Source: Clostridia bacterium
Lineage (GTDB): Bacteria; Bacillota; Clostridia; Oscillospirales; CAG-272
Direction of reading: 5' to 3'
Length of the DNA stretch: 64,000 bases
Assembly (NCBI GenBank): GCA_017467085.1
Contig: JAFTSW010000053.1
Span: 7,782-71,781, forward strand
In this document: piece by piece, positions 8,876 through 50,496 of the stretch
Layout of the letters: each line of letters opens with the position of its first letter
How positions within the stretch are numbered: the first letter of the stretch is position 1
Position numbers and translations under genes: made by a program
Notes under the pieces: generated by a model
Databases searched by the model: none
What the model saw: only the letters and a program-made list of their open reading frames with translations
What the model was told of the DNA's origin: nothing

Positions 8876-11128
8876 TTAACGGGAGGATAAGCGCCGCCGC
8901 CCCAGTGACAGGGCGTTGCTCAGCACGAACAGAGAGCTGAAGCACATAGCGGCAGCTCCCACCATCGGGGAGAGCAAAAAGCCAAGGGGGTATAGCGCCC
9001 CTGCGGCGACGGGAATACAAAGGGCGTTATAGAAAAATGCCCAAAAGAGATTTTGCCGAATGTTGCGGACGGTGAGCTTTGAGAGGGTCAACGCCTCGCA
9101 CACCCCGAAAAGGGACTCGTTCAAAAGCACGATATCGGCGCTTTGCATAGCAATATCGGTGCCGCCGCCCAAGGCGCAGCCCACGTCTGCCGATGCTAAG
9201 GAGGGGGCGTCATTGACGCCATCGCCGACCATTATAACACATTTGTTTTGGTTTTGCAAGCCCTTTATATAAAAAGTTTTTTCTTCGGGAAGAACCTCGG
9301 CGCAGAAATCGGTAATGCCCAATTCCTTAGCGGCGCAGGCGGCGGCAGGACGGGAGTCCCCCGACAAAAGATGCACCGAAATGCCTGCCCCTTGCAGACG
9401 GGCAACCGCCTCCTTGGCGTCGGGCTTTAAGGGGTCGCGGATGGCGAAAACCCCAAGCGCCGCGCCCTTCTCCGCCAGGTAGACCAAAGCGGCGCCCTCC
9501 TCTGCCTCCGCTCTTGCCGCCTCGGCAAGAGAGTCGGGAAGGGACACACCCTGCTCGGAAAGCAGGCGCTCGTTGCCTAAGAGAAGGGAGGAGCCCTCCT
9601 CCCATTCCGCCAACAGTCCCTTACCGCCAAAGGAGGTGACCCTTTGGGGAAGCGGATGGGCGGGGGCGCCGTCTTGGGCGGCAAGCGCCTTGATAGCCAA
9701 GGACAGAGGGTGGGTGGAGGTTTCCTCCGCCGCGGCGGCACGGGCAAGCAGCGCCTCTCTTTGCGCCTCGGCGTCCTCCCTCAGCAAAAAGCGGTGAACG
9801 GCAGGGCGACCCTGGGTCAGCGTCCCCGTTTTGTCAAAGACGGCGGTGTCTACACGGCACGCCGTTTCCAGCGCCTCGCCGCTGCGAATGAGAATACCGT
9901 GCTTGGCGCCAAGCCCCGTTCCGACGGCAACCGCCGTGGGGGTGGCAAGACCCATCGCGCAGGGACAGGCAATTACCAAAACCGAGGTGAAAATACGAAG
10001 GGCAAAGCCAACGCCCTTGCCGAGAATCAGCCATAGCACCCCTGCCAAGAGGGCAATCAGAAGCACCGCGGGAACGAAAACGCCCGCGATTTTATCGGCG
10101 GCACGGGCAATAGGGGGCTTTTTCTCCTGGGCGTCCTCCACGAAGCGGATGATGGAGGAAAGGGTGGTATCCTCCCCCAAGCGCTCTACCGAAAGAGTCA
10201 GGGAGCCCGAAACCAGAACGGCGCCCGCTACGGCGGCGTCCCCCTCCGCCTTGTGAACGGGAAGGCTCTCTCCCGTCAGCATAGACTCGTCAACACCGCC
10301 CTCCCCCGAAAGGACGCGGGCGTCTGCGGGGATGCGCTCCCCCGTGCGAACCAGAAGGGTGTCGCCTACTTGCAAGGCGGAAAGGGGAAGCTCCTCCAAA
10401 AGCCCGTCCTCACGAACAACGCGTGCCGTGTCGGGCAAAAGCGCCGCCAAGGCGCGAATGGCGCCCGCCGTTTTCTTTTTGCCGCGCTCCTCCAACGCCT
10501 TGCCAAGGGAAACTAAGGCAACCACTATAGCGGCAGACTCATAGTAAAGCCCCATCACAAGGGAGGGGTCCTTCGGTAAAAGCAGGGTCAGCACGAAGCT
10601 GTAAATAAAGGAAGCAAGGCTACCGAGCGCCACCAGCGTATCCATATTGGGCGCAAGGCGCAGAGCGGCGGTAATCCCGCTTTTATAACGGGAAAAGCCA
10701 AGCCCCATCACCAGAAGCGCCAGCACCATCTGGGTATAGGCGTAGACAAGAGGGGAGGTGGCAGGGGCGAGAAAGGCGGGAAGAGGCGCGCGAAGCAGCA
10801 TATGCCCCATAGAGAGATAGAGGAGAAGGAGGGAAAGTGCCAGGGAGAGAATCAATCGCCCGTGAACCTGCCAGAGGGAGGGCGCCTTGGGGGGCGCCGC
10901 CTTTTCCCTTGCCTCCGTCATCAAAATGGCGGTGAAGCCTGCTCTTCTGACTCTTGCGGCAATTCTGGCGGAGGAGGTGACTCCCTCGTCAAAGGAAACG
11001 CGCATTTTTTCGGTAATCAGGTTGACGGAGCAGTCAGACACCCCCGCCTCCCGACGCACTGCCTTTTCTACGGCGGCACTGCAAGCGGCGCAGTGCATAC
11101 CCTCAATGCGGAAAAGCTCTTCTTTCAT
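8876..11128 (-). CDS. copA: copper-translocating P1B-type ATPase
   Basis: N-terminal HMA domain (GMHCAACS), CPC motif in a TM helix ([11 protein letters not shown]), DKTGTLT phosphorylation site, GDGVNDAP hinge. Start taken at [10 protein letters not shown]. Confidence 0.9.
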
Positions 11129-11234
11129 AAAAAATCCTGTTGCCCCCACTTGGAGGCATCCTTTCTACGGCGCAAAGCGCCAGGACGGGTACCTGCAAGA
11201 CAGGCGCCCGAAATGTAAACAATTCTTTACGTGT

Positions 11235-11987
11235 TCAGGAGGCGAATTTCTTGCGCAAATGCCCCACGACCTTACCGCAGCAGAGAAAATCGTCAAAGCG
11301 GCAAAGGGGAATATCGGGGTATTCGGGGTTCAGGGAATGAAGCCTATCTCCCATATAGCGCTTGAAATAGCCCTCCCCGTTGGCAATAAAGATGCCAAGC
11401 TCACCGAAATTGACCGAGGGCTGCTGGTGGACCAGGACGATGTCCCCGTGACGGAAGCGGGGCTCCATACTGTTGCCGCTGACACGGAGCGCAAAGTCTG
11501 CCTTTTCCGTGGCGGCGTCGGCGCGCACGTCGATGCTTTCCCTGTCCGCGTGGTCAAGGAAGGTGCCCGTTCCCGCGGAAACGGGAAGAATATACAAGGG
11601 AATGGTAATCATCGCGGCACTCTTGCTGTCGGCGGCGAGGCTTTGGTTTTTCTCGTTTTCGGCGCCTAAGGCGTCTGCCGTTCTGCCGCTTTCCATCTCG
11701 GCAACGGCGCGGACGGCCGCCTTGCCGTATCCGTCGCTGTTACGGTAATCCTTCAAGAGCTTTTGCTCGTCCTGGGAAAGAGAAACGGCGTCTTCCTCCA
11801 GAAGGGCGCCCAAGGACACCCCTAAGGCACGGCAAAGAGCAAGGGCAACGGAGAGCTTGGGCTCCTCGATAACACCCGACAGGAGCTTGTTCAGCGTTCC
11901 CAAGGGAATGCCGCTTTTCTGACTCAATTCTTGGGTGGTCAGCCCCTCTTTATTCTTAATGGAACGGATTTTTTCAAAAAAACGCAT
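11235..11987 (-). CDS. XRE-family HTH fused to an S24 (LexA/CI-like) self-cleaving peptidase domain
   Basis: N-terminal HTH (LTTQELSQKSGIPLGTLNKLLSG). C-terminal SGNSMEPRFRHGDIVLV Ser nucleophile motif plus a downstream Lys (GYFKRY). Confidence 0.8.
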   Translation of the reverse strand: MRFFEKIRSIKNKEGLTTQELSQKSGIPLGTLNKLLSGVIEEPKLSVALALCRALGVSLGALLEEDAVSLSQDEQKLLKDYRNSDGYGKAAVRAVAEMESGRTADALGAENEKNQSLAADSKSAAMITIPLYILPVSAGTGTFLDHADRESIDVRADAATEKADFALRVSGNSMEPRFRHGDIVLVHQQPSVNFGELGIFIANGEGYFKRYMGDRLHSLNPEYPDIPLCRFDDFLCCGKVVGHLRKKFAS

Positions 11988-12366
11988 AAAGCAGTCCTTT
12001 CCGCGCCGTATTTTCGGCGGCTTTTGTCAAGTCGGTGGATGTCACGGCTATATTGTAGCATAGCAAAACGAAAAAGTAAATACCTTTTGGAAAATTTCTT
12101 GAAAATATTTTCCTTTTTAGGTAAAATGCACAAAGAGGGAGGAAGCGCTTGCTGTGCCTTGCGCATCTTTGACAAGGGCGCCACAAGACGGCTAAAAACG
12201 CAAAAAAGGGGAAAACGGAAAAATTTTTGACACCGCTTATATATAATATAAAGGAAGAAAAGGAAAAAAAGCATCCGATTTTCGGAACAGGCGGGAAGCA
12301 AAAATGGGCAAAATGCTAAAAATTACATAAATGAAGGAAAAAACGGGAGAATTTTTTTGTACTTTA

Positions 12367-12395
12367 TTGACAAACGAAAAATAATATGGTACAAT
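12367..12395 (+). promoter_or_regulatory. candidate sigma-A promoter
   Basis: TTGACA, 17 nt, TG-extended TACAAT, about 75 nt upstream of the ATG at 12471. Confidence 0.5.
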
Positions 12396-12470
12396 GCATA
12401 GTAGAGGTGTATACCACAAAAGGCGCCCTTGGGAGCCTTTGCGTATCAATATTTTCAAGGAGAAAGAACC

Positions 12471-13556
12471 ATGAAGAAAAAAGTTTTACTTCCGCTCTTG
12501 CTCGTGGCAGTTATGCTGCTCGTTTCCATGATGGTATTTTCCGTTCATGCAGACGAATGCTCCGCAGGAGGCTCCCATGAGCCCAGCCCCCTTCCTCCCA
12601 CGTGTACAACGGGTAGATTTTGTACCAAGTGCTTCGAAGAGTTAGAGCCCCCCGCCGGTCACGCGTGGGATGAGGCTACCTGTGCTGCCCCCAAGACCTG
12701 CCGTACCTGCGGTGAGACGGAAGGCAAGAAGCTGCCCCACGACCCTAAGAATTACGACAGAGCAGAGCCTACCTGCACGGACCCCATCATTTGTACCGCT
12801 TGTATGCGTGAGGTTGAGCCCGCAAAGGGACACAACCCCGGCGCCGCTGCTGACTGCGGTCACGCACAGTGGTGCACCGATTGCAGCGCTTTGATTGCCA
12901 ACGCAACGGGTGAGCACGATTTTTCCGGTGCGGGTGAGGTTGTAAAGGCGCCCACTGCCGCCGGCGGCTTTGGCGAATGCCTGATTACCTGCGCTAACTG
13001 CGATGAGAAGATTCTGCAGCACTTCACCACCTTCGTTGCCTCGGATGATGCCAAGGCAAGCACCGTTGGCGGTACCGCCCAGCTTGCTTTGCAGTCTTAT
13101 CTTGACGTAAAGACCTTGAAGATTGCCAACTATTCGGGCGTCAAGCTGAACGGTAGCGACAAGCTTTTGCAGGTTGCGGACATTACGCTGTACGATGCAG
13201 AGGACGAGAGCTATCAGCCTAACGGAACTCTGCAGGTAAAGATGCTTCTGAACAAGTCCGCTGTTAAGTTTAACAAGGATGAGCTGAAGGTTTACCACAT
13301 CGCGGAGGACGGCAAGGCTACCGAGCTGACCGTTATCGCTGTTGAGGACGGTTACGTAACCTTTGAAACCACTCATTTCTCCGTTTTCGCCGTCGCCGTT
13401 GAGGGTGAAACCGGCGTTGCGGTTCTTGGCGGTTCCACGGGTATGCCCATTGGCGCCATCATCGGTATCATCGCAGGTGCCGTTGTACTGGTAGGCGGAG
13501 CCGCTGTTGCCGTGGTACTGATTCTGAAAAAGAAGAAGTCCGCTGCCGCACAATAA
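12471..13556 (+). CDS. cysteine-rich, C-terminally membrane-anchored surface protein (hypothetical)
   Basis: AAGGAG RBS. Signal peptide MKKKVLLPLLLVAVMLLVSMMVFSVHA. Five C-x(4-6)-C-x2-C repeat units. C-terminal TM helix followed by KKKKSAAAQ. Confidence 0.7.
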   Translation: MKKKVLLPLLLVAVMLLVSMMVFSVHADECSAGGSHEPSPLPPTCTTGRFCTKCFEELEPPAGHAWDEATCAAPKTCRTCGETEGKKLPHDPKNYDRAEPTCTDPIICTACMREVEPAKGHNPGAAADCGHAQWCTDCSALIANATGEHDFSGAGEVVKAPTAAGGFGECLITCANCDEKILQHFTTFVASDDAKASTVGGTAQLALQSYLDVKTLKIANYSGVKLNGSDKLLQVADITLYDAEDESYQPNGTLQVKMLLNKSAVKFNKDELKVYHIAEDGKATELTVIAVEDGYVTFETTHFSVFAVAVEGETGVAVLGGSTGMPIGAIIGIIAGAVVLVGGAAVAVVLILKKKKSAAAQ

Positions 13557-37569: not shown

Positions 37570-37694
37570 TTTATAGCTCCTATCGTCTGTTATTTTTGTT
37601 TGCGCATATATTGTAACACAAATGTGTTCAATTGTCAACATATGTATTCAATAAAAACAGGCAGAAACAGTACAATATTCTTGAGGTGATGAGT

Positions 37695-37949
37695 ATGCTG
37701 CAAGAATATCTGGATTCTGTAATCGTTGGCGAATCTATCGCATATTTCCGTCGGAAGAAAAATGCGTCGCAAGAGGTTTTAAGCGGACTTGCCGATATCG
37801 GCAGAACGCATCTGAGCGCCATAGAACGAGGCACGCGCAAGCCGACGTTGGAAACGCTTTACCGTATTAGCTGCGCTTTGAACGTGAAAATGAGTGAGAT
37901 TGTGACGGATATTGAAAAGCGGCTTGAGGAAGCCAAGGACCGCAGATAG
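37695..37949 (+). CDS. XRE-family HTH transcriptional regulator
   Basis: ATG behind GAGGTG. HTH_3 motif ASQEVLSGLADIGRTHLSAIERGTRKPTLETL. Confidence 0.75.
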   Translation: MLQEYLDSVIVGESIAYFRRKKNASQEVLSGLADIGRTHLSAIERGTRKPTLETLYRISCALNVKMSEIVTDIEKRLEEAKDRR

Positions 37950-38050
37950 TGTGTTATCTTCGTGGCACATATAGTGGGGCTTGTCGGGTAAGAGGGCTTT
38001 TCAAGGCTTCCAAGGAAGCCTGCAAGCTAAGCGATTACAAATAAAGAGAT

Positions 38051-38097
38051 AAAAAAGCAGACACACAAGAGAAAAATCTTGTATGTCTGCTTTTTTT
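38051..38097. terminator. bidirectional rho-independent terminator
   Basis: aaaaaagcagacacacaaga gaaaaa tcttgtatgtctgcttttttt, between convergent HTH and AraC genes. Overlaps the AraC stop codon. Confidence 0.65.
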
Positions 38098-38884: not shown

Positions 38885-39023
38885 ACCGTTCCCCCTCTTT
38901 TCGTTGTTTCTATTTTATCATACTTGTTCATTTTTTGCAATATAAAATACAGGTTTTGCTATTTACTTTTCAAAAACCTTTTTGCATAATAAAGATAGAA
39001 AATCCCCAAAAGGAGAGGTGCTT

Positions 39024-40094: not shown

Positions 40095-40132
40095 GGGCAA
40101 GGACGGCTTAAGAGAGAAAGGAAACAAGCGGT

Positions 40133-40345
40133 ATGAAAAAAATCGTCATACTGGGCTGTGAAAACTCCCACGCGGACGCCTTTTTGCGCTTCTTGCGTGA
40201 AAAGGAGGCGTTTTACGGGCTGCTGTCGGGCAAGGCGCAGACCGAAAGCTACGAGGCGTTTGCAAGCCCCGTATTCATTATGAACGCCATTGACCGTTCC
40301 TTGCGAAGCGGCAAGGAGGAGCTTGTGGGAAGGATGGAAATTTGA
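40133..40345 (+). CDS. 70-aa ORF resembling the fused N- and C-terminal ends of a Gfo/Idh/MocA oxidoreductase (possible remnant or micro-protein)
   Basis: MKKIVILGCENSHADAF looks like a Rossmann beta1 start. The C-terminal part, ending IMNAIDRSLRSGKEELV, resembles the usual family C-terminus. The stop lies 1 nt before the next ATG. Confidence 0.35.
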   Translation: MKKIVILGCENSHADAFLRFLREKEAFYGLLSGKAQTESYEAFASPVFIMNAIDRSLRSGKEELVGRMEI

Positions 40346-40346
40346 T

Positions 40347-41192
40347 ATGCGGCAGTTTAAGCTTTCTGCCTTTGCGGATGAATATGCGGATTCCTTTGAG
40401 GAGCAGCTACAGGGGCTGGGGCGGTTTGGTATCGGAAGCATTGAGGTGCGGTACCTGTTGGGAAAAAACGTGTCTCTTTTGGAGAAGGAGGAGGCAAAGG
40501 AAGCCAAGCGGCTGTTAGAACGCTACGGCGTTGGGGTGTCGGCTATTGGCTCGCCTCTTGGAAAGATAGGGTTAGACGGGGATATAGAGGCACACCTTAC
40601 CGTGGCGCGCCGTGTTTTTGAAACGGCGCGGATTCTGGAAACGCCCTTTGTGCGTATGTTCAGCTTTTATGCCCCTAAGGGGGAGAGCATCACCGACAAA
40701 AGAGAAGAGGTGCTACGGGTATTAGAGCGCTTGGTTACCCTGGCGCGGGAGTACGGCGTTGTGCTTTGTCACGAAAACGAGGCAGCCATATATGGCGACG
40801 TCCCCCTTCGCTGCAAGGAGCTTATGCGGCATTTTCACGGGGAAATGAAATGCGTGTTCGATATGGGGAACTTCGTATTGGAGGGGGTAGAGCCCTACCC
40901 CGATGCCTACACGCTTTTGCAGGAGGATATTGCCTATTTCCATATAAAGGATGCGCTTTTTGCGGGGGCAGTCGTACCGGCGGGCAAGGGCGAGGCAAGC
41001 ATAAAGGAGATACTTTCTGCCCACAGGGCATATGCCAAGGAGGACTTTTTCGTGTCCTTGGAGCCCCATCTACAAACCTTTTCGGGACTGAACGCATTAG
41101 TTGGTCGTCGCTTCCGGAACCCCTATCAGTATACAGACAAACAGGCGGCGTTTGCCGATGCGGTAACCAAATTTAAGGAGTTATTTGAATGA
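40347..41192 (+). CDS. sugar phosphate isomerase/epimerase (xylose isomerase-like TIM barrel)
   Basis: 281 aa from MRQFKLSAFADEY. LCHENE and FHIKD metal-ligand blocks typical of the AP_endonuc_2 / TIM-barrel family. Confidence 0.8.
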   Translation: MRQFKLSAFADEYADSFEEQLQGLGRFGIGSIEVRYLLGKNVSLLEKEEAKEAKRLLERYGVGVSAIGSPLGKIGLDGDIEAHLTVARRVFETARILETPFVRMFSFYAPKGESITDKREEVLRVLERLVTLAREYGVVLCHENEAAIYGDVPLRCKELMRHFHGEMKCVFDMGNFVLEGVEPYPDAYTLLQEDIAYFHIKDALFAGAVVPAGKGEASIKEILSAHRAYAKEDFFVSLEPHLQTFSGLNALVGRRFRNPYQYTDKQAAFADAVTKFKELFE

Positions 41193-41947
41193 AGAGCTTA
41201 CAAAAGGACCTTTTACGGGTGCAGATATACGAAACAAGAGGCGAAATGGGACGGGCCGCCGCCGCGGACATCAAGGCGTGTATGCTTTCACTTTTGGAAA
41301 CCCGAGATGAGCTTCGTATGATTTTTGCCGCCGCGCCCTCACAAAACGAGGTGCTGGAGGCGCTTGTCACCGACAAGGACATTCCCTGGGAGAGGGTGAA
41401 CGCCTTTCATATGGACGAATATATCGGACTTCCTGCCGATGCGCCCCAGGGCTTTGGCAATTTTCTTAAGGCGCATATCTTTGGGCTTGCGCCCTTCAAG
41501 AGCGTTTCCTATATTAACAGCACCGCCGAGGATGCCGAGGCGGAGTGCCTTCGCTATGCCGCTCTTTTGGCAGAAAAGCCTGTGGACATCGTGGTGATGG
41601 GCATCGGGGAGAATGGGCATATTGCCTTCAACGACCCGCCTGTGGCGGATTTTGAGGACAGGCAGGCGGTCAAGCCCGTGACGCTTGACGAAATCTGTCG
41701 CAACCAGCAGGTGAACGACGGCTGCTTTGCCAGCCTTGCCGAAGTGCCGAAAACGGCCATCACCCTGACCGTGCCCACGCTCTTGGCAGGGAAGCATCTT
41801 TTCTGCATCGTGCCTGCCAAGACCAAGGCAGGGGCAGTTTATGCCACCTTGACGGACGCCATTAACGAAAAATGTCCCGCTACCGTTCTGCGCCGCCACG
41901 AAAGCGCCGTTCTGTATCTGGATGCCGACAGCAGCGCGCTGCTATAA
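41189..41947 (+). CDS. glucosamine-6-phosphate deaminase / 6-phosphogluconolactonase-family protein
   Basis: FAAAPSQ, FHMDEYIGL and MGIGENGHIAFNDPP motifs of the NagB family. ATGA overlap with the upstream gene. Confidence 0.8.
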   Translation: MKSLQKDLLRVQIYETRGEMGRAAAADIKACMLSLLETRDELRMIFAAAPSQNEVLEALVTDKDIPWERVNAFHMDEYIGLPADAPQGFGNFLKAHIFGLAPFKSVSYINSTAEDAEAECLRYAALLAEKPVDIVVMGIGENGHIAFNDPPVADFEDRQAVKPVTLDEICRNQQVNDGCFASLAEVPKTAITLTVPTLLAGKHLFCIVPAKTKAGAVYATLTDAINEKCPATVLRRHESAVLYLDADSSALL

Positions 41948-41954
41948 GATTGCG

Positions 41955-43100
41955 ATGAAACGAATAAAATCCGATAAAATTATAGTAGATGACCGTATCC
42001 TTGACGGGTACGTGTATTTTGAGGGCGGCAGGATAGTGGAGCTGACCCAAAGGGAGCTACCCGTTTCCGAGGAATACGATATGACGGGCTATTACGTCAG
42101 CCCCGGCTTTGTGGATATACATACCCACGGCGGTGGCGGCTATCGGTTTGAGGGAAGCGTGGAGGAGATAATCGGCGGCTGCAATTTTCATTTGCGCCAC
42201 GGGACCACCTCTATCTGTCCCACCGTATCTGCCGCGCCCCTTGCGGATATGGCGGCATCCGTTGCCAACGTGTGGGCGGCTATACAGGACAAACGGGTTA
42301 AGGGGACGCTTATAGGCGCCCATTTAGAGGGCCCCTATCTTTCCTTCAAGCAGGCAGGCGCCCAAGCCGCCTCCTTCTTGACGCCTCCCGACGCGGCGGC
42401 GTATATGCCCTTTTTGGAAAAATATGCGCCTGCTATTGCCAGATGGACCTACGCCCCCGAAAATGATAGGGACGGGCGCTTTGTACGGGCGTTGCAAAAG
42501 CACGGCATTGTTGCCTCTATGGGGCATACCGACGGGGTGTACGAGGATGCGGTACGGGCATATGAGGGCGGGTGCGAGCTGGTTACGCATCTTTATTCCT
42601 GCACCTCTACCGTCACACGGGAGCAGGGCTTCCGGCGGCTTGGCGTGATTGAGAGCGCTTATCTTTTGGACGGAATGAAGGTTGAAATTATATGCGACGG
42701 AAAGCACTTGCCCCCGGAGCTTATCCGCCTGGTTTACAAAATAAAGGGGGCAAAGAGCATTGCCCTTGTCACCGACAGCCTTGCCCTGGCAGGGACAGAC
42801 AAGACGCACGGCTTTATGCAGGGCACCGAGTTTATCATAGAGGACGGCGTTTGCAAGCTGATGGACAGAAGCGCCTTTGCGGGAAGCATCGCAACGGCAG
42901 AGCGCCTGGTGCGTGTGGCGGTAGAGGAGGCGGGGCTTCCGCTGACCGAGGCTGTCAGTATGATGACCGCAACCCCCGCAAGCATCATGAAGCTGGCGCG
43001 CAAGGGCAGGCTTGCCCCCGATATGGATGCGGATTTCGCCATCTTTGACCCCGCCTTCACCGTGCAGGCGGTGTTTGTCGGCGGCGAGCGGCAGGTATAG
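41955..43100 (+). CDS. N-acetylglucosamine-6-phosphate deacetylase paralog
   Basis: SPGFVDIHTHGGGGY, HLEGPYL, SMGHT, VTHLYS, LVTDS blocks. Divergent from the nagA at 34850..35995. Confidence 0.8.
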   Translation: MKRIKSDKIIVDDRILDGYVYFEGGRIVELTQRELPVSEEYDMTGYYVSPGFVDIHTHGGGGYRFEGSVEEIIGGCNFHLRHGTTSICPTVSAAPLADMAASVANVWAAIQDKRVKGTLIGAHLEGPYLSFKQAGAQAASFLTPPDAAAYMPFLEKYAPAIARWTYAPENDRDGRFVRALQKHGIVASMGHTDGVYEDAVRAYEGGCELVTHLYSCTSTVTREQGFRRLGVIESAYLLDGMKVEIICDGKHLPPELIRLVYKIKGAKSIALVTDSLALAGTDKTHGFMQGTEFIIEDGVCKLMDRSAFAGSIATAERLVRVAVEEAGLPLTEAVSMMTATPASIMKLARKGRLAPDMDADFAIFDPAFTVQAVFVGGERQV

Positions 43101-43183
43101 CACCCTACAAAAATGAAAAAGAGAAAATAAATCGGCAAAACCGAAATATCCTCTCTTTTTTGTTATCTTTTGCAGCGTAGAAA

Positions 43184-43678
43184 TCAATAAAGGGAGAGCA
43201 GAATAAAATTCGCGACCATGGAGCACTGCCTAATCGTTAAAAGAAATATACCAAACCACATAAAAAGCTTGTAGCCTACCGGCTTTACGTGCTTCATCAA
43301 AAACAGATTGATGCAAGCGCTTAAACCGCTAATCGCGCCGCCTATGGCGCCACCGACAATGGGCATAATCATACAAAGCTGTGGAACATTTCCCCATACT
43401 AACACAAACACAAAAATCAAGGCAGAGCAAAGGAACTCGTACCACTTGTAAGACTCGGATAGCTGTATCACGTCCTGATCGATGTATAAGGTTGCGCCTG
43501 TTAAAAAGCTTCCTTTGATTCGGCAATCCAAATCTCCGTTTTCACTGCTTAACGTAAAGACGTTTCTCTTTTTCTTTGTCAATTTTTCTCCATTAACGGT
43601 AAGCTCGCGTTTCCCCGTCCAAAAATTTTCATTATACTCTATTTGGCCGTATCCAACGTGGTGTGTACTTGCTTTCAT
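43184..43678 (-). CDS. membrane protein: N-terminal soluble domain of about 90 aa plus three TM helices (hypothetical)
   Basis: AAGGAGG RBS. 164 aa. Last gene of the AT-rich cassette. Confidence 0.6.
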   Translation of the reverse strand: MKASTHHVGYGQIEYNENFWTGKRELTVNGEKLTKKKRNVFTLSSENGDLDCRIKGSFLTGATLYIDQDVIQLSESYKWYEFLCSALIFVFVLVWGNVPQLCMIMPIVGGAIGGAISGLSACINLFLMKHVKPVGYKLFMWFGIFLLTIRQCSMVANFILLSLY

Positions 43679-43699: not shown

Positions 43700-44407
43700 T
43701 TAATTGGCTTTTAGAAGCTTGCATTTTTGCTCTCTTTTTTTCATCAATTCAATAAGCGAGGCGGCATTTGCTTTCGCGACGTCTACGTCCTCTGCTTCGA
43801 CAGCATCAGCAAAGGCTTTGAACTGTCCTTCTATTTGAGAATCAAGCGCAGAGAGCGCATCGTTTGTCATAGAATCGCTATAACGTATTGCTTCGTACAC
43901 CTTTTTAGCTTCCTCAAAAAGCTCATCTGTTTTTGCCGCGTTCATAAGAGCTTGTGCATCAACGGTAAGGCTCTTCATGAAAAATGTTTGTGCTTTTATT
44001 TTCTCGTCTATATCGCTGACAACACCTGCGGCGGCAGTTGCTTTGAGAACGGCAACGGTCTGGAACGCAAGTGTTATTGCGCATACGATGATGCCTATCC
44101 ATTCAGGAAGCACGGGGATTACCATAAATATGCTTCCCGCAATCAGCATAGCACCAAGTCCATCGTAGCTAAGAGAAATCAGCGGAATTCTGTAAAAAAA
44201 CTTTTTGAGGTTATTTGCCTTAAATGCGAAAAACGCACAAACAAGTTGACCGACAAATGCTACCGTGATGAATATGTAGCCTATCCAAAAGGAATGGGTG
44301 AATTTGCTGGCACCACCGATTTCTTTCGGGGTAACAAAAACGATAACGTTGAAAACCGCAAGGCATAACGCCCATATTAAAGAATATATTCTGAAGCTCT
44401 TTTTCAT
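43700..44407 (-). CDS. membrane protein: four TM helices plus a helical C-terminal domain of about 100 aa (hypothetical)
   Basis: GGGAGGAA RBS. 235 aa. C-terminal amphipathic/coiled region (KVYEAIRYSDSMTNDALSALDSQIEGQF). Confidence 0.65.
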   Translation of the reverse strand: MKKSFRIYSLIWALCLAVFNVIVFVTPKEIGGASKFTHSFWIGYIFITVAFVGQLVCAFFAFKANNLKKFFYRIPLISLSYDGLGAMLIAGSIFMVIPVLPEWIGIIVCAITLAFQTVAVLKATAAAGVVSDIDEKIKAQTFFMKSLTVDAQALMNAAKTDELFEEAKKVYEAIRYSDSMTNDALSALDSQIEGQFKAFADAVEAEDVDVAKANAASLIELMKKREQKCKLLKAN

Positions 44408-44422: not shown

Positions 44423-45595
44423 TTATCTCTTTGTTCCGCACTTGGGGCAGAATTGACCGGGACGTTCAAATTTGTAACCGCAGCTTGCGCAAGTGTCATT
44501 TGCCTTGGCTACTGCCGTTCCGCACGCATCGCAGAATGCCGCATTGGGAACGAGCTTTGCGCCGCAGTTGTCGCAGAAGCCGCCTTCTGCCGCGGCAGGA
44601 GCAGCGGGGGTGGTATTATGGAGCGCATCGCCTACGGCGTTGCCAACAACACCGCCTACGACACCGCCAACCCCCGCCATCGTGCCGAGCCCAACGCCCA
44701 GGTTGGTCATCTGACCGACAGCTTCGTTGGAAGCCACCTTTTCCGCAACGTCAAATCCACGCTCTTGCGCATAGGTGTATCCCTCCTGCGCGCGCTTGGT
44801 TGCCTGCGCCTGCGAATCGATAACAAGCCGTTGTGCCTCGGTTTCCGCGTCAATCACGCTAACCTGCTGACGAAGCTTTGCCTCGGCAATATCAGCATAC
44901 TGACGGAAATGGAGTTCCTTGAATTTTTCGTACTGTCTTTCACCGTCAGGCTTGACAACAGTGGTAACAAAGAACTGTTCAAGAGCAACGCCGTATTCCG
45001 CAAAATCGTTGATAAGGAGCTTTTTGATGGCATCGGAGAAAGTGGCAAGGTTCTCATCAATCTCAAAAACATTGATAGCATTCGACTTCATTACTTGCGC
45101 AATATAGGTTTTGACTCTCGTCATAAGGAATGCGCGGAAGAAGCTGACAAGCGTTTGCTGGTTGAGGAGGGTTTCCGTTCCCACCAATTTGAGAAGCATC
45201 TTTTTTGCGTTGTCAGCGCGCAGGGACAGCTCGCCCGATGCGCCTATGGAGATTGGAAATCTGTATGTGGGTTCAATATACTGTACCTTAGAATCCGTCC
45301 CCCATTTGATAGACATTTGCTCGGTCTTGTTGATAAAATAGACCTCGCAATGAAAGGGGGTTGCGTCGCCCGTGGCAAGGTTTAGCGCCTTGCCAATCAA
45401 CGGAATGTTCTGTGTTTCCAGTGTATAGCGACCGGGACCGAACGAGTCAAGCGCCTGACCGTTCAAGAAGAAGATAGCTTCCTGGCTTTCGTGAACGATA
45501 AGCTGTGTCAGAGAATTAAAATCCTCGTAAGGATGCTTCCAGATAAAGGTGCTGTTGTCACCCTCATATTTAATGATATCTGCAATTTTGGGCAT
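44423..45595 (-). CDS. SPFH/Band-7 domain protein with a C-terminal Gly-rich linker and a double zinc ribbon (COG4260 / YdjI-like)
   Basis: N-terminus MPKIADIIKYEGDNSTFIWKHPYEDFNSLTQLIVHESQEAIFFLNG. Coiled region AEAKLRQQVSVIDAETEAQRL. C-terminus CDNCG..CDACG..CASCG..CPKCG. AAGGAGG RBS. Confidence 0.8.
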   Translation of the reverse strand: MPKIADIIKYEGDNSTFIWKHPYEDFNSLTQLIVHESQEAIFFLNGQALDSFGPGRYTLETQNIPLIGKALNLATGDATPFHCEVYFINKTEQMSIKWGTDSKVQYIEPTYRFPISIGASGELSLRADNAKKMLLKLVGTETLLNQQTLVSFFRAFLMTRVKTYIAQVMKSNAINVFEIDENLATFSDAIKKLLINDFAEYGVALEQFFVTTVVKPDGERQYEKFKELHFRQYADIAEAKLRQQVSVIDAETEAQRLVIDSQAQATKRAQEGYTYAQERGFDVAEKVASNEAVGQMTNLGVGLGTMAGVGGVVGGVVGNAVGDALHNTTPAAPAAAEGGFCDNCGAKLVPNAAFCDACGTAVAKANDTCASCGYKFERPGQFCPKCGTKR

Positions 45596-45741: not shown

Positions 45742-47742
45742 TTACTTAATTGCCTGTTCCTCGTTAATCCAGGTTGCCTTGAAAACGAAATCAAAATGCT
45801 TTTTAGCCTCTTGATATTGATATATCTCACATTTCCAACCCACAAAATGGTATCCCGCTCGTTCCGAGGTAAGCAAGCCCGAAAACATCGCTTCGGAGGT
45901 ATAGAGTATCTCGTTGGAATCTGAGCCTATAAGAATTCCGCCCTCGCATTGGTACACGATATGCACGGTGATGCCACCCTCCAAAAAGTCGCGGATAGAG
46001 GCTTCGTAGCCTACATTTTTTTCGACTATTTGTTTAAGCTTCGCCTCTTCTATTGCTTCGTCAAATTTTGGAATTGTTTGCTTTAGCAGGGTGGTTTCCT
46101 TCGCTTCCTTCAAAAGAGCGATGGCATCGTCAAACTTTTTCTCTTCTATCATTTCTAATGCGGCATTGTATTGTGCATTGGGAACGACAATGCGAGAAAT
46201 AAGAACGTATGCCACAGCCGAGATGAGAGCGGCAATCAGTACACATATACCGATAATCAAAATTCTTTTCTTGGCTTTTTTTATGGCAATCTTGCGGTCT
46301 TCTTCTTTTCTTCGTTGCTCCAGACGCAGTTGCTCCCATTCTTCCTGAAGGGCATCTATTTTTTCTTGGCAGGCTGCCACGCATTGCTCCGCATCAAGAT
46401 AATCCAAAACAGACAGAAAAAGCTTTTTGGCGCTCTTACAGGTGGGGATATCCCTTGCGTTGTTCAACAAGGCTTTCGCCTTTTCATAAACCTCGTTCTT
46501 CTTTTTATTATCAATACGAGTATGGACCGTTTGCAGCGTATGCAAAAGCTCGTTTTTAAGTTTTTCGCTTGCAAATTGCAGGGCCTTCTTAAAATTATTG
46601 CTATCTGCGAAGGATGTTTCACTGTTGGCAAGCTCGCCCTTGCTTTTTAAGCGCAATTCCACTAACAGCTTACCCACATAACCCTCGGCGTTTTCGGGCT
46701 CCTGATTCAATATCTGCTCATAAAAGGCATCCGCAATGTCAAATTCTCCGTCTGCCAATGCCATGGACGCTCTTTTGAAAAGGGGCTCTGTAGCGGCATT
46801 AAAGCCTGTAGCGATAGTTTTTTTGTTAACTGTATTGCTTTGATTATCGAATCCAATAATCTTTTTGATTCCGCGAATCAAATCCTGCATAAAGCCCAGC
46901 TTTGACATATCCTGCGCCTGCAGATGAGAAAACTCCTCGGGCAGGTCATACGGGTCCATATATCTGTATGCCGGGATAAGCACCTTCTTTTCGCCGCTTT
47001 TGATAAGCGCAAGGAATCGACTCCACTCGTTCCTTACCCAAACGGCGTTGAAGTATTCGGGACGAGTGCCAAGAACCACCATTATCTTTGCGGAATGCAA
47101 TGCCGCAAATATGTACGGCTCGTATGCTATACCAAGTTTGTCTTCCAAGGTGATGCGAGAGAAAAACACCTTGAAGCCCTCGCGTGTCAGCTCGTTATAA
47201 AGCTCGGTCGCAAGGACGCTGTCCGGCGTTCTTCTGCCACTTGCGTCGGTTTCTTTATAGCAGATGAACACATCAAAAGGATCTTCCTTTTGCGAGATGG
47301 CAAGGAACCCCTTCTGAATTTCGTTGATAGCCGTTGCTTCCGCTTCATATATCTCACGCTGGTGCTCGTCGGCGTTAGCAATAGCGGATTTGTAGTCTTC
47401 ATCGTCAAAGATGGAGGTGAACTGTGCGCGGTTTACCGTGGGAACCCTCTTATGCGTCACAGGATCTTCTACGTATTCAACTCCATAGCGGCAAAGAACA
47501 ATCGACCAATATGCCTCGGCATCGGTGCTGTCCTCGTCCAGAATGGTTTCATAAATGCCCATCGCCTTGTCAAAATCATTGTTGCGACGAAAGTGATTTG
47601 CTCTGTCATAGTGATTGGCGCGGCGCTCATTGTCAAGCTTTGGCAGCGTTTGTCTTGTACCGCAGTATTCGCAAACAGCGACGGACTGCGCGCTACCTAA
47701 TTCAAGCGAGCCGCCGCAGATTTTGCACTTAAAGATTGCCAT
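45742..47742 (-). CDS. Zn-ribbon / TPR-like / TIR domain / coiled-coil / single TM / extracellular Flg_new-repeat protein
   Basis: 666 aa.
- Zn ribbon: CKICG...CEYCG (aa 6-28).
- TIR blocks: FDVFICYKE (aa 156-164), GFKVFF, IMVVLG, FNAVWVRNEWSRF (aa 231-243).
- TM: a basic stretch RRKEEDRKIAIKKAKKR followed by the TM helix ILIIGICVLIAALISAVAYVLI (aa 494-515).
- C-terminus: GYHFVGW...ATW repeat. Confidence 0.85.
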   Translation of the reverse strand: MAIFKCKICGGSLELGSAQSVAVCEYCGTRQTLPKLDNERRANHYDRANHFRRNNDFDKAMGIYETILDEDSTDAEAYWSIVLCRYGVEYVEDPVTHKRVPTVNRAQFTSIFDDEDYKSAIANADEHQREIYEAEATAINEIQKGFLAISQKEDPFDVFICYKETDASGRRTPDSVLATELYNELTREGFKVFFSRITLEDKLGIAYEPYIFAALHSAKIMVVLGTRPEYFNAVWVRNEWSRFLALIKSGEKKVLIPAYRYMDPYDLPEEFSHLQAQDMSKLGFMQDLIRGIKKIIGFDNQSNTVNKKTIATGFNAATEPLFKRASMALADGEFDIADAFYEQILNQEPENAEGYVGKLLVELRLKSKGELANSETSFADSNNFKKALQFASEKLKNELLHTLQTVHTRIDNKKKNEVYEKAKALLNNARDIPTCKSAKKLFLSVLDYLDAEQCVAACQEKIDALQEEWEQLRLEQRRKEEDRKIAIKKAKKRILIIGICVLIAALISAVAYVLISRIVVPNAQYNAALEMIEEKKFDDAIALLKEAKETTLLKQTIPKFDEAIEEAKLKQIVEKNVGYEASIRDFLEGGITVHIVYQCEGGILIGSDSNEILYTSEAMFSGLLTSERAGYHFVGWKCEIYQYQEAKKHFDFVFKATWINEEQAIK

Positions 47743-47753
47743 GATGCTCTCCT

Positions 47754-47948
47754 CTATTTGTTGTCAATAACTTCTATGTTTTCAATAGAAAACGCGAGGC
47801 ACTTCTGAATGATTTCGTTGCGCGTGCGCCCCGTTTGCTCTGCAATCGTATCGAGCTTTTCTATCATATCATTAGGAAGCCTTACAGACACCACAGAAGA
47901 ATCTCCGCGAAATTTTTTGGATGATATTACAAGCTTTTTGTCAGACAT
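47754..47948 (-). CDS. ribbon-helix-helix (CopG/Arc-like) DNA-binding protein
   Basis: 64 aa. VVSVRLPNDMIEKLDTIAEQTGRTRNEIIQKCL fits the beta-strand / helix / helix RHH pattern. AGGAGGAA RBS. The stop lies 11 nt before the TIR gene ATG. Confidence 0.75.
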   Translation of the reverse strand: MSDKKLVISSKKFRGDSSVVSVRLPNDMIEKLDTIAEQTGRTRNEIIQKCLAFSIENIEVIDNK

Positions 47949-47987
47949 TGTTTGTATTCCTCCTATTTGTAGTTCGTTGCTATGTAT

Positions 47988-48017
47988 AGTATATCACATT
48001 TGTAGTGTTTTTGTCAA
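47988..48017 (-). promoter_or_regulatory. candidate sigma-A promoter of the RHH-TIR unit
   Basis: Minus strand reads TTGACA, 18 nt, TG-extended TATACT, about 40 nt upstream of the RHH ATG. Flanked and overlapped by a 9-bp direct repeat ACTACAAAT. Confidence 0.6.
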
Positions 48018-48065
48018 CGGTTTTATAAAAATATTGTAATTAAGGGGCAACAAAGCCTGATGCTT

Positions 48066-48166
48066 GCGCTTGTTTCCGCACATACCTGCTTCAAATCTGA
48101 AAGCGACTATCTTCAAAAGTTAATAAAAAAACCAAGCCTTTCGACTTGGTTTTTGGTGCTAGGTAG
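48066..48166. repeat. direct repeat copy 1 (about 100 nt)
   Basis: gcgcttgtttccgcacatacctgcttcaaatctgaaagcgactatcttcaaaagttaataaaaaaaccaagcctttcgacttggtttttggtgc. Matches 48682..48781 with 2 substitutions and 1 indel by eye. Confidence 0.85.
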
Positions 48167-48360
48167 AAGCGGCGCATTTGGCGAAAGCATCGGGCGCGCT
48201 TGTTTTGCGCCGCCTGCAAATATCCCTTGCGGTCTCATGACCGCATTTTGCAAGCAAAAACGGGATATTTCGCGATTGGTTGCGTTTTTAAGCTGTTGAA
48301 CCTTCATTCCGCTTCGCAGAATGAACGAGGTTCAACCCAAAATCAAGGCGTAAGCCTTGC

Positions 48361-48513
48361 ATATCATCCGCAATTTATTGCGGCATATCATCAGCCCGAA
48401 GGGCTGGATATCATCATTGCGAAAGAGTATACAGCCTACGGCTGATGATATACTCGCCTTGACGAGAGGTGCTCGTCAAGGCGGATGATATACACGCTAA
48501 GGCGTGATGATAT
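48361..48513. repeat. three direct plus three inverted copies of ATATCATC with interleaved short hairpins
   Basis: ATATCATC at 48361, 48385 and 48408. GATGATAT at 48444, 48484 and 48506. Each pair of motif copies is separated by a small GC-rich hairpin. Confidence 0.8.
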
Positions 48514-48580
48514 ACCATTGCTTTCGCAATGGATAAAAAACAACCTAAATTGTCCCTTGCGGTTCAATTTAGGTTGTTTT

Positions 48581-48705
48581 TGGTGCAGGTATGAAACTTG
48601 CTTTGCAAGTTTTGGAGTTAGAACCTGTATGCCCGTGAAGGCACTAGAACCTGACGCTCGCGCGTCTGCCGAAGCGCCTCGGCGCTTGTTTCCGCACATA
48701 CCTGC
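48581..48705 (-). pseudogene. degenerate tRNA-Leu-like copy with hairpin insertions
   Basis: Minus strand reads GCAGGTATGTGCGGAA[ACAAGCGCCGAGGCGCTTC]GGCAGACGCG..TCAGGTTCTAGTGCCTTCACGGGCATACAGGTTCTAACTCC[AAAACTTGCAAAGCAAGTTTCA]TACCTGCACCA.
- The acceptor stem, variable arm and CCA are identical to the neighbouring tRNA-Leu.
- The 5' strand of the anticodon stem and the 3' strand of the T stem are disrupted. Confidence 0.6.
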
Positions 48706-48781
48706 TTCAAATCTGAAAGCAGCTATCTTCAAAAGTTAATAAAAAAACCAAGCCTTTCGACTTGGTTTTTGGTGCAGGTAG
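48682..48781. repeat. direct repeat copy 2 (about 100 nt)
   Basis: See copy 1. Spans the 5' end of the tRNA-like copy, a spacer, a terminator hairpin and the 3' end of the intact tRNA-Leu. Confidence 0.85.
48741..48769 (-). terminator. rho-independent terminator after tRNA-Leu
   Basis: Minus strand reads aaaaaccaag tcgaaagg cttggttttttt, immediately 3' of the CCA end. Confidence 0.7.
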
Positions 48782-48856
48782 CAGGAGTTGAACCTGTATG
48801 CCCGTGAAGGCACTAGAACCTGAATCTAGCGCGTCTGCCAATTCCGCCATACCTGC
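48770..48856 (-). tRNA. tRNA-Leu (anticodon CAG), type II with a long variable arm and encoded CCA
   Basis: Minus strand reads GCAGGTATGGCGGAATTGGCAGACGCGCTAGATTCAGGTTCTAGTGCCTTCACGGGCATACAGGTTCAACTCCTGCTACCTGCACCA.
- 7-bp acceptor stem GCAGGTA / TACCTGC.
- Anticodon stem CTAGA / TCTAG with loop TTCAGGT.
- T-loop TTCAACT. Confidence 0.85.
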
Positions 48857-49284
48857 ATATTAACTTTTGGAAGCAACCTGCTTTTGAAAGCAAGCTTGCT
48901 TTCGATTCCGCTTTAGTGTCATTGCTTTTTCGCCGAGCCAAGGCCCGTCGAAAAGCAAGACACCCGAGGATACCCTTTAGGGTGTCCTACCGTTTGCACG
49001 GCACGTTGCAACCGTCCATTCCGCTTACGGCGAATCATCACCTTGTGCGGAAAACGGCTTTACTGTCTGCGCGATGTATCCCGAGGATACCCCGCAGGGG
49101 AGCAAAATCGCAACGAATGAATTGTATCACAAGTCAATGGTTTTGTCAAGCCCTTTCACAAAATTTTTTCGTTCTTATCGCAAAAAAACCAAAAAAATCG
49201 CAAAAAAGCGTTTTTTTGTAGGTTTTTTCAAGAAAAAATGGGAATTTGCGCCACAATTAGGGGGAAAATGGCGTGTTTTTTGCG

Positions 49285-49313
49285 TTGCAAAGCGCCGCCT
49301 TCTATGCTACAAT
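49285..49313 (+). promoter_or_regulatory. candidate sigma-A promoter
   Basis: TTGCAA, 17 nt, TACAAT, about 70 nt upstream of the ATG at 49381. Confidence 0.5.
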
Positions 49314-49380
49314 GAACAAAGCGGGGGCAGATGCTCGCCGCTTTTCGACACAGACGATAGAACCGAAAGGACGAAACAAT

Positions 49381-50496
49381 ATGAAGGATACGAAAATCCC
49401 CACCCTTTGTGAAAAGGGCGCTGTCAGCCATCTGGAGGGCTCCTCCTTTTGCTACCAGGGGTGGCCTACCGTTTGCCGAGATGAGGAGGGAACGCTTTAC
49501 GCGGCTGCCTCCTCCTTCCGCTGCGCGCACGTTTGCCCCTTTGGCAAGAACGCGATGTTTATCAGCAAAAACGGCGGCAAGACCTGGTCGCCCCCTATCG
49601 TGGTAAACGATACCTATTCGGACGACCGTGACGCGGGGCTTCTCTATATGGGAGAAGGGCGGCTTTTGCTTTCCCATTTTCATCACCCTGCCACCTATTA
49701 CGAGTCCAACAAGGACAGTCTTTTAACCTGGGCAGGAAGCGACGAAATCAAGAAGGGCTTTGCAGGAGTTATCGAGGGGCTTGCCTCTCTTCCCGAAGAG
49801 GCGCGGCAGGCAGGCTCCTTTGTCCGCCTGTCCGAGGACTACGGCATAACCTGGAGCGAGAACATCCGTGTTCCTGTGACGGCGCCCCACGGTCCCTGTC
49901 TTTGCCCCGACGGAAGCCTTTTGTATCTGGGAAAGGGTAGCTTTTCCAGAGAAGAGGACGGCATCGACAAGGACGAAATCTGGGCATACGCCAGCCTTGA
50001 CGGGGGCAAGACCTGGGAAAAACGGGGCCTTTGCCAAAAGCCCGCGGACATTTCCTGGCGCGTGCTGCACGAGCCACATGCTTTGGCGCTTCCCGACGGC
50101 AGCCTTTTGGGCGCCATTCGCTCCGAGGCGGGCAGCACGGGAGGCGGCTGCTTCGCTACCTTTATCACCAAGTCCTATGACGGCGGACGCACCTGGAGCG
50201 CTTGGCGCGACCTGGGCGTTATCGGCTCGCCGCCCCACTTGCTGCTCCTTTCCACGGGTGAGGTGCTTTGCAGCTACGGCAGACGGGAAAAGCCCTACGG
50301 CATCCGCGCCATCTTCAGCGCTGACGGTGGCGAAAGCTGGGGAGATGAATATATCCTCGATGAGGATTTTGAAACCTACGACCTCGGCTATCCCTCCACG
50401 GCAGAGCTGGATGACGGCAGCCTCATCACCGTCTATTACGGTCACCACGGCGGCCCCAAGCCCAATGATGTTCTGTATACCAAGTGGAAAAGATAA
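49381..50496 (+). CDS. BNR/Asp-box repeat protein (sialidase-like beta-propeller), no signal peptide
   Basis: Asp-box motifs SKNGGKTWS, SLDGGKTWE, SYDGGRTWS, SADGGESWG. Start MKDTKIPTLCEKG has no hydrophobic leader. Confidence 0.75.
   Translation: MKDTKIPTLCEKGAVSHLEGSSFCYQGWPTVCRDEEGTLYAAASSFRCAHVCPFGKNAMFISKNGGKTWSPPIVVNDTYSDDRDAGLLYMGEGRLLLSHFHHPATYYESNKDSLLTWAGSDEIKKGFAGVIEGLASLPEEARQAGSFVRLSEDYGITWSENIRVPVTAPHGPCLCPDGSLLYLGKGSFSREEDGIDKDEIWAYASLDGGKTWEKRGLCQKPADISWRVLHEPHALALPDGSLLGAIRSEAGSTGGGCFATFITKSYDGGRTWSAWRDLGVIGSPPHLLLLSTGEVLCSYGRREKPYGIRAIFSADGGESWGDEYILDEDFETYDLGYPSTAELDDGSLITVYYGHHGGPKPNDVLYTKWKR

Follow-up and report, generated by a model that had tools for sequence, protein, structure and literature searches.

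PASTA Ser/Thr kinases and RsgI anti-sigma factors share a layout in which an N-terminal cytoplasmic output domain is followed by one transmembrane (TM) helix and by C-terminal extracellular repeat or binding domains. The bacterial TIR proteins known to us either act in the cytoplasm, as sensors or effectors (Thoeris, CBASS, SPARTA, STAND), or are secreted as virulence factors, and we know of no bacterial TIR defence system that has been described with a large variable ectodomain. Here we report on a TIR gene (45742..47742, minus strand) in a 64,000-nucleotide stretch of DNA from a Clostridia bacterium (Oscillospirales, CAG-272; GenBank assembly GCA_017467085.1, contig JAFTSW010000053.1, positions 7,782 to 71,781 of the forward strand), which was analysed as a whole and is referred to below as the window. 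The product of 666 amino acids (aa) consists of a Zn-ribbon, a tetratricopeptide repeat (TPR) region, a TIR domain, a single TM helix and an ectodomain. It has the type-II layout of the PASTA kinases and RsgI, with a TIR domain as the output in place of a kinase or anti-sigma domain, and is encoded in an operon with an SPFH protein and a four-TM protein. We class it as a sensor with a fused TIR effector, whose topology and set of partners are both new; its architecture and topology are much more secure than its function.

A 2024 survey of bacterial TIR defence found that the TM and leucine-rich repeat (LRR) features of Toll-like receptors (TLRs) seem to be absent from bacterial TIR systems (PMC11350192). 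Thoeris ThsB, Rst_2TM_1TM_TIR and the E. coli TIR-TM systems share with the window protein a TIR_2 domain with a catalytic-type glutamate, and some of them include TM proteins. Unlike Thoeris, however, the window operon has no gene for a ThsA-type effector, and its proteins match no PADLOC-DB model of Rst_2TM_1TM_TIR or of the other PADLOC TIR systems; the sole defence-related hint is a match to the NCBIfam Thoeris-III ThcB4 model at 26.7 bits, far below its cut-off of 220.

In Bacillus subtilis, the SPFH protein YdjI (SamI) is recruited to the membrane by YdjG, which has an N-terminal Zn-ribbon, and by YdjH, and loss of SamI causes SamG-SamH to signal constitutively (PMC8581546; PMC9239133; bioRxiv 10.64898/2026.02.06.704340). 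The B. subtilis pspA-ydjGHI (samGHI) locus resembles that in the window in two respects. Both encode a soluble Band_7_1 SPFH protein that has a linker of low complexity and ends in a Zn finger, as YdjI has been described (PMC8581546), and in both the SPFH gene lies beside genes for two membrane partners, one of which has a Zn-ribbon at its N-terminus while the other is a further integral membrane protein. The Zn-ribbon membrane protein in the window differs in that it also bears TPR units, a TIR domain and a variable ectodomain.

An antigen-sensing role has been proposed for C-type-lectin sensors that are diversified by diversity-generating retroelements (DGRs) and work through coupled TIR effectors (Dore et al. 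2024, PMC10907252). The family described here likewise joins a hypermutable C-lectin-type sensor to a TIR domain, and at the related loci L008, L018, L020, L017 and L067 the TIR-TM protein is itself the DGR target. The systems of Dore et al. are mostly cytoplasmic, NTPase-centred (STAND/VMAP, MoxR-vWA) and found in multicellular Proteobacteria and Cyanobacteria, whereas the Clostridial family has no NTPase, spans the membrane and is partnered by an SPFH protein, and its window copy has no DGR. This membrane-spanning, SPFH-linked family appears neither in that paper nor in the main text of the global DGR survey (PMC8144416). In the openly readable full-text literature, which leaves subscription journals outside its coverage, we found no account of the family or of a link between TIR and SPFH proteins.

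Domain architecture and membrane topology

The TIR gene starts with ATG behind a GAGGAG ribosome-binding site (RBS). Its product opens with a Zn-ribbon (C6-x2-C9 ... C24-x2-C27; 47662..47727, minus strand), as had been proposed in the initial annotation of this DNA, which was made from the sequence alone; C6, C9, C24 and C27 are unchanged in the 73 relatives that were aligned. Pfam gives weak matches to this element (e.g. A2L_zn_ribbon), and the full-length AlphaFold model builds it as four short beta-strands with a predicted local distance difference test (pLDDT) score of ~75-84. Weak TPR units are found by Pfam at aa ~44-78 and ~322-356; the first of these (aa 44-78; 47509..47613, minus strand; TPR_14, E=8.8e-8) lies within a strongly conserved N-terminal module of aa 1-148. 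The TPR and TIR regions are joined by a strongly conserved segment, aa 78-150 (nt 47293-47511), with the consensus YWSIVLCRYGxEYVEDP..KRxPTxNRxQxTSIFDDEDYKxA. This segment has no family match, is modelled as a beta-hairpin and helices (pLDDT ~67-91), and may be a partner-binding or regulatory element.

The TIR_2 domain (PF13676) spans aa 158-281 (46900..47271, minus strand; E=2.5e-11) and scores 44.6 bits against a Pfam gathering cut-off of 28; all 55 of the relatives sampled have a TIR_2 match as well. Both motifs that the initial annotation had picked out are present, the DVFICY block and a W-x-x-x-E element, WVRNEW (W235-V-R-N-E239-W). Within the latter, Glu239 (codon 47026..47028, minus strand) is, by alignment, the candidate catalytic glutamate, and it is unchanged in 264 of 264 relatives. 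The solved structure closest in sequence is the TLR15/TLR2 TIR domain 7ylf (E=0.004 with the single sequence, 0.0015 with the family profile); the alignment pairs AVWVRNEW with SCWCQYEL and so places Glu239 on the E of WCQYEL, a conserved TIR glutamate. We take this W-x3-E (SxWCxxEL) position to be that of the catalytic glutamate of NADase TIRs such as SARM1, AbTir, ThsB and the plant TIRs. NADase TIRs require this conserved glutamate and are activated by self-association.

The TIR assignment rests on sequence. In a PDB sequence-profile search we reached the TLR15/2 TIR domain and no bacterial NADase TIR, and searches for more divergent TIR relatives, both word-indexed and exhaustive, returned among the matches listed nothing other than the family itself, the 150 listed by the exhaustive search being 69-91% identical. 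A Foldseek search of the PDB with the full-length model gave generic TPR matches with TM-scores <=0.14 and was judged uninformative.

The initial annotation had placed the Glu239 codon at 47026-47028 and a basic stretch at aa 477-493, followed from residue 494 by the hydrophobic helix ILIIGICVL...; all the coordinates that it gave are exact. The TM helix (aa 494-516; 46195..46263, minus strand) is the sole hydrophobic segment of the protein (Kyte-Doolittle 2.84 at 494-512) and is modelled inside one continuous helix, 451-533. Eight Lys and Arg residues flank it among the 15 residues on the N-side versus one among the 15 on the C-side, a bias that holds across the family (means of 6.5 and 1.5; 239 of 245 proteins have more on the N-side), and the domains that follow the helix are of surface type. 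Because extracytoplasmic-type ectodomains are combined with a family-wide positive-inside bias, the proposed orientation, N-terminus in and C-terminus out, is independently supported. There is thus strong support for a type-II single-pass protein, of which ~490 residues are predicted to be cytoplasmic.

This arrangement had been likened to the logic of a TLR, with an ectodomain, one TM helix and a cytoplasmic TIR domain. The layout is upheld family-wide: TLRs and this family alike use a single TM helix to link a TIR domain inside the cell to a ligand-binding ectodomain, and in some family members the ectodomain even consists of LRRs; the polarity, however, is reversed, as TLRs are type I (N-terminal LRR, C-terminal TIR) whereas the TIR protein is type II. 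It differs further in its added Zn-ribbon and TPR region, in its SPFH and four-TM partners, which are not MyD88-type adaptors, and, in the window copy, in an ectodomain that is Flg_new-like and not LRR. The W-x3-E glutamate aligns with that of TLR2/TLR15 (7ylf), and the proteins resemble each other in the TIR domain only (E ~1e-3), with no sign of common descent beyond it. The likeness is an architectural analogy and not orthology.

The last 150 aa, which are predicted to be extracellular, are modelled mostly at pLDDT 76-91, with ~75 helical aa leading into an all-beta domain (592-660, pLDDT 85-91). The initial annotation had read a Listeria-Bacteroides-type repeat here. Pfam gives no direct match of this C-terminal domain (aa 590-660; 45763..45975, minus strand) to Flg_new (PF09479), even at E<=10. 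A hidden Markov model (HMM) built from the window C-terminal segment and its orthologs does match the Pfam-called Flg_new_2 (E=6e-9) and Flg_new (E~4e-4) repeats of the relatives P0003 and P0001, and the signature GYxFxGW...AxW is present. Because the ortholog HMM matches annotated Flg_new repeats, we regard the domain as probably a diverged single repeat of the Listeria-Bacteroides (InlB B-repeat) type. The closest relatives (885-1096 aa) have three to five additional repeats, and a similarly short variant, P0005, is known elsewhere. We found no remnants of lost Flg_new repeats downstream of the window gene, which indicates that its short ectodomain is not a recent truncation.

The family, its ectodomains and its operon partners

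From a word-indexed search we examined the best 120 of at least 8000 scored proteins. These matches align with the query over its first ~74-100% (in nearly every case ~490-540 aa or more), with 52-75% identity, before diverging. The start M..FKCK.CGG is found in 116 of the 120, the other four being shifted or N-terminally truncated; 118 have a single TM helix at 486-566; and the motif WV[K/R/C]NEW is carried by these best 120 matches. To assess the size of the family, we used the TIR region as the sole query in an exhaustive HMMER search (E<=1e-30) against representatives of clusters at 50% identity, which gave at least 3017 such representatives. Among the 150 matches listed, the TIR region is 69-91% identical to that of the window protein (80-91% in 148), it lies at residues ~149-300 in ~130, and total length ranges from 265 to 3073 aa. 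Where public names are given, they are 'TIR domain-containing protein', 'DUF6273 domain-containing protein' or 'PilF'. The initial annotation had mentioned similar N-termini from other gut Clostridia under the first of these names, and the searches agree.

A relative is encoded on at least 558 stretches from GTDB species representatives, nearly all of them Clostridia of the gut or rumen (Oscillospiraceae, Acutalibacteraceae, Lachnospiraceae, Anaerovoracaceae, Ruminococcus, Faecousia). A few carriers are cultured strains, e.g. Hominifimenecus sp. rT4P-3 and Anaerotignum sp. MSJ-24. One locus with both the SPFH gene and that of the four-TM protein, L046 (CAVAIH010000017.1), comes from a bin labelled Sphaerochaetaceae (Spirochaetota), which reflects either horizontal transfer or a binning error.

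We measured identities to the window protein and its partners across 79 GTDB loci. The TIR region (149-300) has a median identity of 84% (range 78-90%) and the Zn-ribbon/TPR module (1-148) one of 75% (68-88%), while the post-TIR helical region (301-493) falls to 35% (25-70%). For the partners the medians are 80% for the SPFH protein (43-90%) and 48% for the four-TM protein (25-68%). At ten loci where the SPFH partner is <50% identical the TIR region is still 83-89% identical; judged from these alignments, purifying selection thus acts far more strongly on the TIR module than on the proteins encoded with it in the operon. Ten of the 79 loci have two or three TIR paralogs in tandem, and within the 64-kb window we found no paralog of the TIR gene.

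After the TM helix the family varies. Ectodomains of the types DUF6273/C-lectin, Flg_new/Flg_new_2, BspA-type LRR_5, LRR_8 and RCC1 are found, as are WG-beta repeats, FMN_bind, Lcl_C and Fn3-like domains, and many members have no ectodomain that Pfam recognises. Single-linkage clustering of the ectodomains chained them through a common juxtamembrane stalk and was replaced by this Pfam survey. Giant ectodomains of >1000-2400 aa stand behind the same TIR module in P0227 (3073 aa), P0260 (1786 aa) and P0261 (1619 aa).

The commonest ectodomain is DUF6273, found at 47 of the 79 loci. DUF6273 is a C-type-lectin-like receptor-binding domain that is hypermutated by DGRs in gut phages (PMC10743442; bioRxiv 10.1101/2024.10.15.618418). 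A scan for repeat pairs with adenine-specific mismatches yielded five family loci. Complete cassettes, with a variable repeat (VR), bAvd, a template repeat (TR) and an RVT_1 reverse transcriptase, are present at L008, L018 and L020. At L008 the TIR-TM-DUF6273 gene (10001..12571) has the VR (12424-12550) within its final ~50 codons, and the VR is followed by bAvd (E=9e-10), an AAC/AAT-rich TR (13117-13243) and the reverse transcriptase (E=4.7e-22), and 16 of the 17 mismatches between TR and VR fall at template adenines. Partial cassettes that keep Avd and the TR are found at L017 and L067, and remnants at L030, L050 and L070, so that, of the 47 loci whose ectodomain is of the DUF6273 type, 8 show a DGR or traces of one. 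Sequence evidence of this kind indicates that in some relatives a DGR hypermutates the tip of the ectodomain. In L067 (6046-13012) a single TR (12853-13012) matches the VRs of two tandem TIR-TM-DUF6273 paralogs (8376-8535 and 12161-12316); Avd is present and no reverse transcriptase was found within the 21.7-kb locus, so the enzyme may act in trans or may have been lost. The window has no TR/VR pair, no reverse transcriptase and no Avd.

The initial annotation treated the TIR protein as stand-alone, and here its conserved SPFH, four-TM and ribbon-helix-helix (RHH) partners show otherwise. The window operon comprises five minus-strand genes, each with a GGAGG-type RBS and ATG, separated by intergenic gaps of 11, 146, 15 and 21 nt. 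The first (47754..47948) encodes an RHH protein of the CopG/Arc type (64 aa; RHH_1, E=6.9e-7; RBS GGAGG), probably the transcriptional regulator of the operon, and ends 11 nt before the TIR gene. Downstream of the TIR gene lies the SPFH gene (44423..45595; 390 aa), whose product matches Band_7_1 (E=1.4e-35) and ends in a double Zn-ribbon (DZR, E=6.4e-9). It is YdjI/SamI-like and soluble, with no true TM segment and with a Gly-rich linker at 299-317. The four-TM protein, which we call TM235 (43700..44407; 235 aa), has four hydrophobic segments and a helical C-terminal domain of ~115 aa that we infer to be cytoplasmic. TM235 has no Pfam, NCBIfam or PADLOC match, and its 846 detectable homologs are all unnamed and likewise without a Pfam match. 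The last gene (43184..43678) encodes an accessory protein of 164 aa, soluble in its N-terminal half and with 2-3 TM segments towards the C-terminus; it is limited to the window-type subfamily, with orthologs at L001, L005, L006, L007 and L010.

An SPFH gene lies next to the TIR gene at 55 of the 79 loci and invariably shares its strand. Among loci with enough flank on both sides (n=27), 23 have the SPFH gene and 21 have TM235 as well. The cassette recurs amid unrelated flanking genes in two orders: RHH-TIR-SPFH-TM235, as in the window, and the commoner SPFH-TM235-TIR, without RHH. RHH orthologs that are 55-95% identical lie directly upstream of the TIR gene at L001-L007, L009, L010, L025, L040, L055 and L078, and the RHH gene is missing at 44 of the 55 loci that contain SPFH. 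At L008 an open reading frame (ORF) of 296 aa with a weak DUF2971 match (9114-10004) lies directly downstream of the TM235-like gene and overlaps the TIR start by 4 nt.

Proposed function and alternative readings

We favour, at roughly even odds and from sequence comparison, the reading that this protein is an outside-sensing receptor that triggers a predicted TIR NADase activity, probably in conflict or defence. SPFH proteins build large membrane-attached assemblies. TM235 and the SPFH protein could, by analogy with the recruitment of SamI/YdjI by SamG/H, form a membrane-associated scaffold that would keep the TIR receptors restrained. Engagement of the ectodomain by a ligand, with phage particles, glycans and foreign cell surfaces as candidates, or a local perturbation of the envelope, would then cluster the receptors, and TIR-TIR association would turn on NAD+ cleavage or the production of a signal, leading to growth arrest or a downstream response. 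The constant cytoplasmic module together with alternative, partly DGR-hypermutated ectodomains would constitute a repertoire of specificities, in which the window copy would be a member with a minimal ectodomain and no DGR. It is the diversified and hypermutated ectodomains that favour a role in conflict or defence, since they suggest changing ligands such as phage particles or foreign surfaces.

More tentatively, and with somewhat more doubt than belief, we propose that gut Clostridia carry widespread surface immune or conflict receptors of this kind, in which a constant module is gated by an SPFH cage and a four-TM partner and is combined with interchangeable, partly hypermutated ectodomains. 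If true, this would be the first case in prokaryotes of sensing an outside threat with a TLR-like layout and a partly antigen-receptor-like diversification. Outside-in signalling of this type would be a bacterial counterpart of TLR logic, would tie SPFH scaffolds to the control of TIR domains, and would give DGR hypermutation in the gut microbiome a defined cellular output. The family places a catalytic-type TIR domain directly behind a TM helix and a diversifiable ectodomain, and it is very abundant in gut and rumen Clostridia.

A number of observations weigh against this reading. The extreme conservation of the TIR region across bacterial families is atypical of fast-evolving defence genes and might reflect a core role in physiology. 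In the window copy the ectodomain is minimal, a helical stalk and one degenerate repeat, and something so small may have little capacity to bind a ligand. The window operon lies among housekeeping and amino-sugar genes and not in a defence island; no PADLOC model was matched by any of the five operon proteins (E<=0.1); and no copies of the family were found in phage and plasmid collections. The analogy with samGHI is partial: there is no match to the ESCRT-III-like PspA among the five operon proteins, and TM235 has no detectable homology to YdjH, as judged by family matches. The structural models give little help with the TIR domain itself. Its core has a pLDDT of 38-63 in the full-length AlphaFold model and a mean of 62.7 in a domain-only model, because the alignment is shallow and the relatives, all >76% identical, offer too little covariation. 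The order of secondary structure is compatible with beta-alpha repeats at this low pLDDT, and the domain-only model builds the motif region as a strand. Foldseek with the TIR-only model gave hSARM1 as its top match, a weak one (E=0.013, TMq 0.37), and at this confidence the models do not place Glu239 in a pocket.

Several of these points would be expected if the operon were instead a SamGHI/YdjGHI-like envelope-stress module, in which damage to the membrane would act through the TIR domain on NAD+ turnover or dormancy and the ectodomain would be mainly a wall or surface tether. The window operon is chromosomal and outside any island, the cytoplasmic module is very strongly conserved and the window ectodomain is minimal; moreover, the SPFH partner shares the family and layout of YdjI (soluble, with a low-complexity linker and a C-terminal Zn finger), and YdjG begins with an N-terminal Zn-ribbon, as the TIR protein does. 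We nevertheless consider this unlikely, given that massive ectodomain diversification and DGR hypermutation point to specific, changing ligands, that the operon has no PspA gene and that TM235 is not detectably similar to known Psp partners.

It is quite unlikely, in our view, that the protein is a surface adhesin or binding protein with a non-enzymatic anchor, directed at glycans, host mucus or cells, in which the TIR and TPR regions do nothing more than scaffold it into SPFH microdomains. The catalytic-type glutamate, its motif and many TIR residues are constant over 264 proteins at 78-90% identity, which exceeds the needs of an anchor, and Firmicute adhesins normally have a signal peptide and a sortase or lipid anchor, not a cytoplasmic domain of 490 aa. 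On the other side, BspA-LRR, Flg_new, C-lectin and Lcl_C are typical adhesin modules, the TIR domains of animal TLRs serve as adaptors, and most cellular DGR targets are membrane-anchored binding proteins according to the global DGR survey (PMC8144416). Whether envelope stress or adhesion were the function, a TIR domain that is near-invariant across bacterial families would still need explaining.

The flanks of the window operon encode amino-sugar and sialic-acid catabolism, an RHH gene is co-transcribed in the window-type subfamily, and the topology equals that of RsgI and PknB-type sensors. These features would suit a physiological sensor of nutrients, glycans or other cells, with the product or the interactions of the TIR domain regulating genes, e.g. 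through the RHH protein. Such a role is improbable, however, as the 44 SPFH-containing loci without an RHH gene, the variation of flanking genes among loci and the lack of any known transcription-coupled output domain all speak against it. Hardly credible is a TIR virulence effector of the TcpB/TcpC kind that is secreted or injected, or a polymorphic toxin that delivers its TIR domain to other cells, readings that we rejected on topology and TIR invariance: although bacterial W-x3-E TIR proteins include host-targeting effectors, this TIR domain is N-terminal, on the positive-inside side of the only TM helix, invariant and without a signal peptide, and the variable C-terminal toxin domains and adjacent immunity genes expected of a polymorphic toxin are not seen.

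Genomic setting

A sigma-70-like promoter, TTGACA-18-TATACT with a TG element (47988..48017, minus strand; 11 of 12 hexamer matches), lies ~40 nt upstream of the RHH start, and a terminator-like hairpin with a T-run (43132..43144, minus strand) follows the last gene of the operon. Both are consensus matches only, and the promoter scan overall was not enriched relative to shuffled sequences. The operon coincides with a dip in GC content (0.45-0.50 versus 0.55-0.58 in the flanks), with a tRNA gene at the edge of the dip, and may have been inserted beside this tRNA; no integrase, direct repeats or defence genes were seen near the operon.

The tRNA is a tRNA-Leu(CAG) (48770-48856, minus strand) with a promoter-like site at 49149..49121 (minus strand), ~820 nt upstream of the operon. 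The intervening 820 nt between the RHH gene and the tRNA (47949-48769) contain no ORF with a family match, and an Rfam scan of this gap gave the tRNA only. Besides the operon promoter, the gap contains two minus-strand hairpins that resemble terminators (48359..48344 and 48444..48432) and probably end the tRNA transcript.

On the downstream side of the operon is an amino-sugar and sialic-acid utilisation cluster (36151-43100, both strands) with genes for a ROK kinase, an AraC regulator, a GFO oxidoreductase, a xylose-isomerase-like TIM barrel, NagB and NagA. Across the operon, beyond the tRNA-Leu, lies a BNR-repeat sialidase-like gene (49273-50496, plus strand).

Among relatives, at L002/L003 (15729-16031 and 2296-3477), the cassette is followed by extra unnamed genes and an RHS/YD-repeat fragment (TEN_YD-shell), with a tyrosine integrase ~4.5 kb upstream, which hints at a variable or mobile neighbourhood, unlike that of the window. 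At L001, the closest NCBI relative, a SLFN_AlbA_2/HATPase_c_4 gene (4942-6393; Schlafen-like, often defence-associated) lies ~1.4 kb upstream of the RHH-TIR cassette. Elsewhere in the window, an S10-Clostridia ribosomal-protein leader (60870-60941, plus strand; Rfam RF03136, 47 bits), which confirms that the host is one of the Clostridia, stands at the head of the S10 operon.

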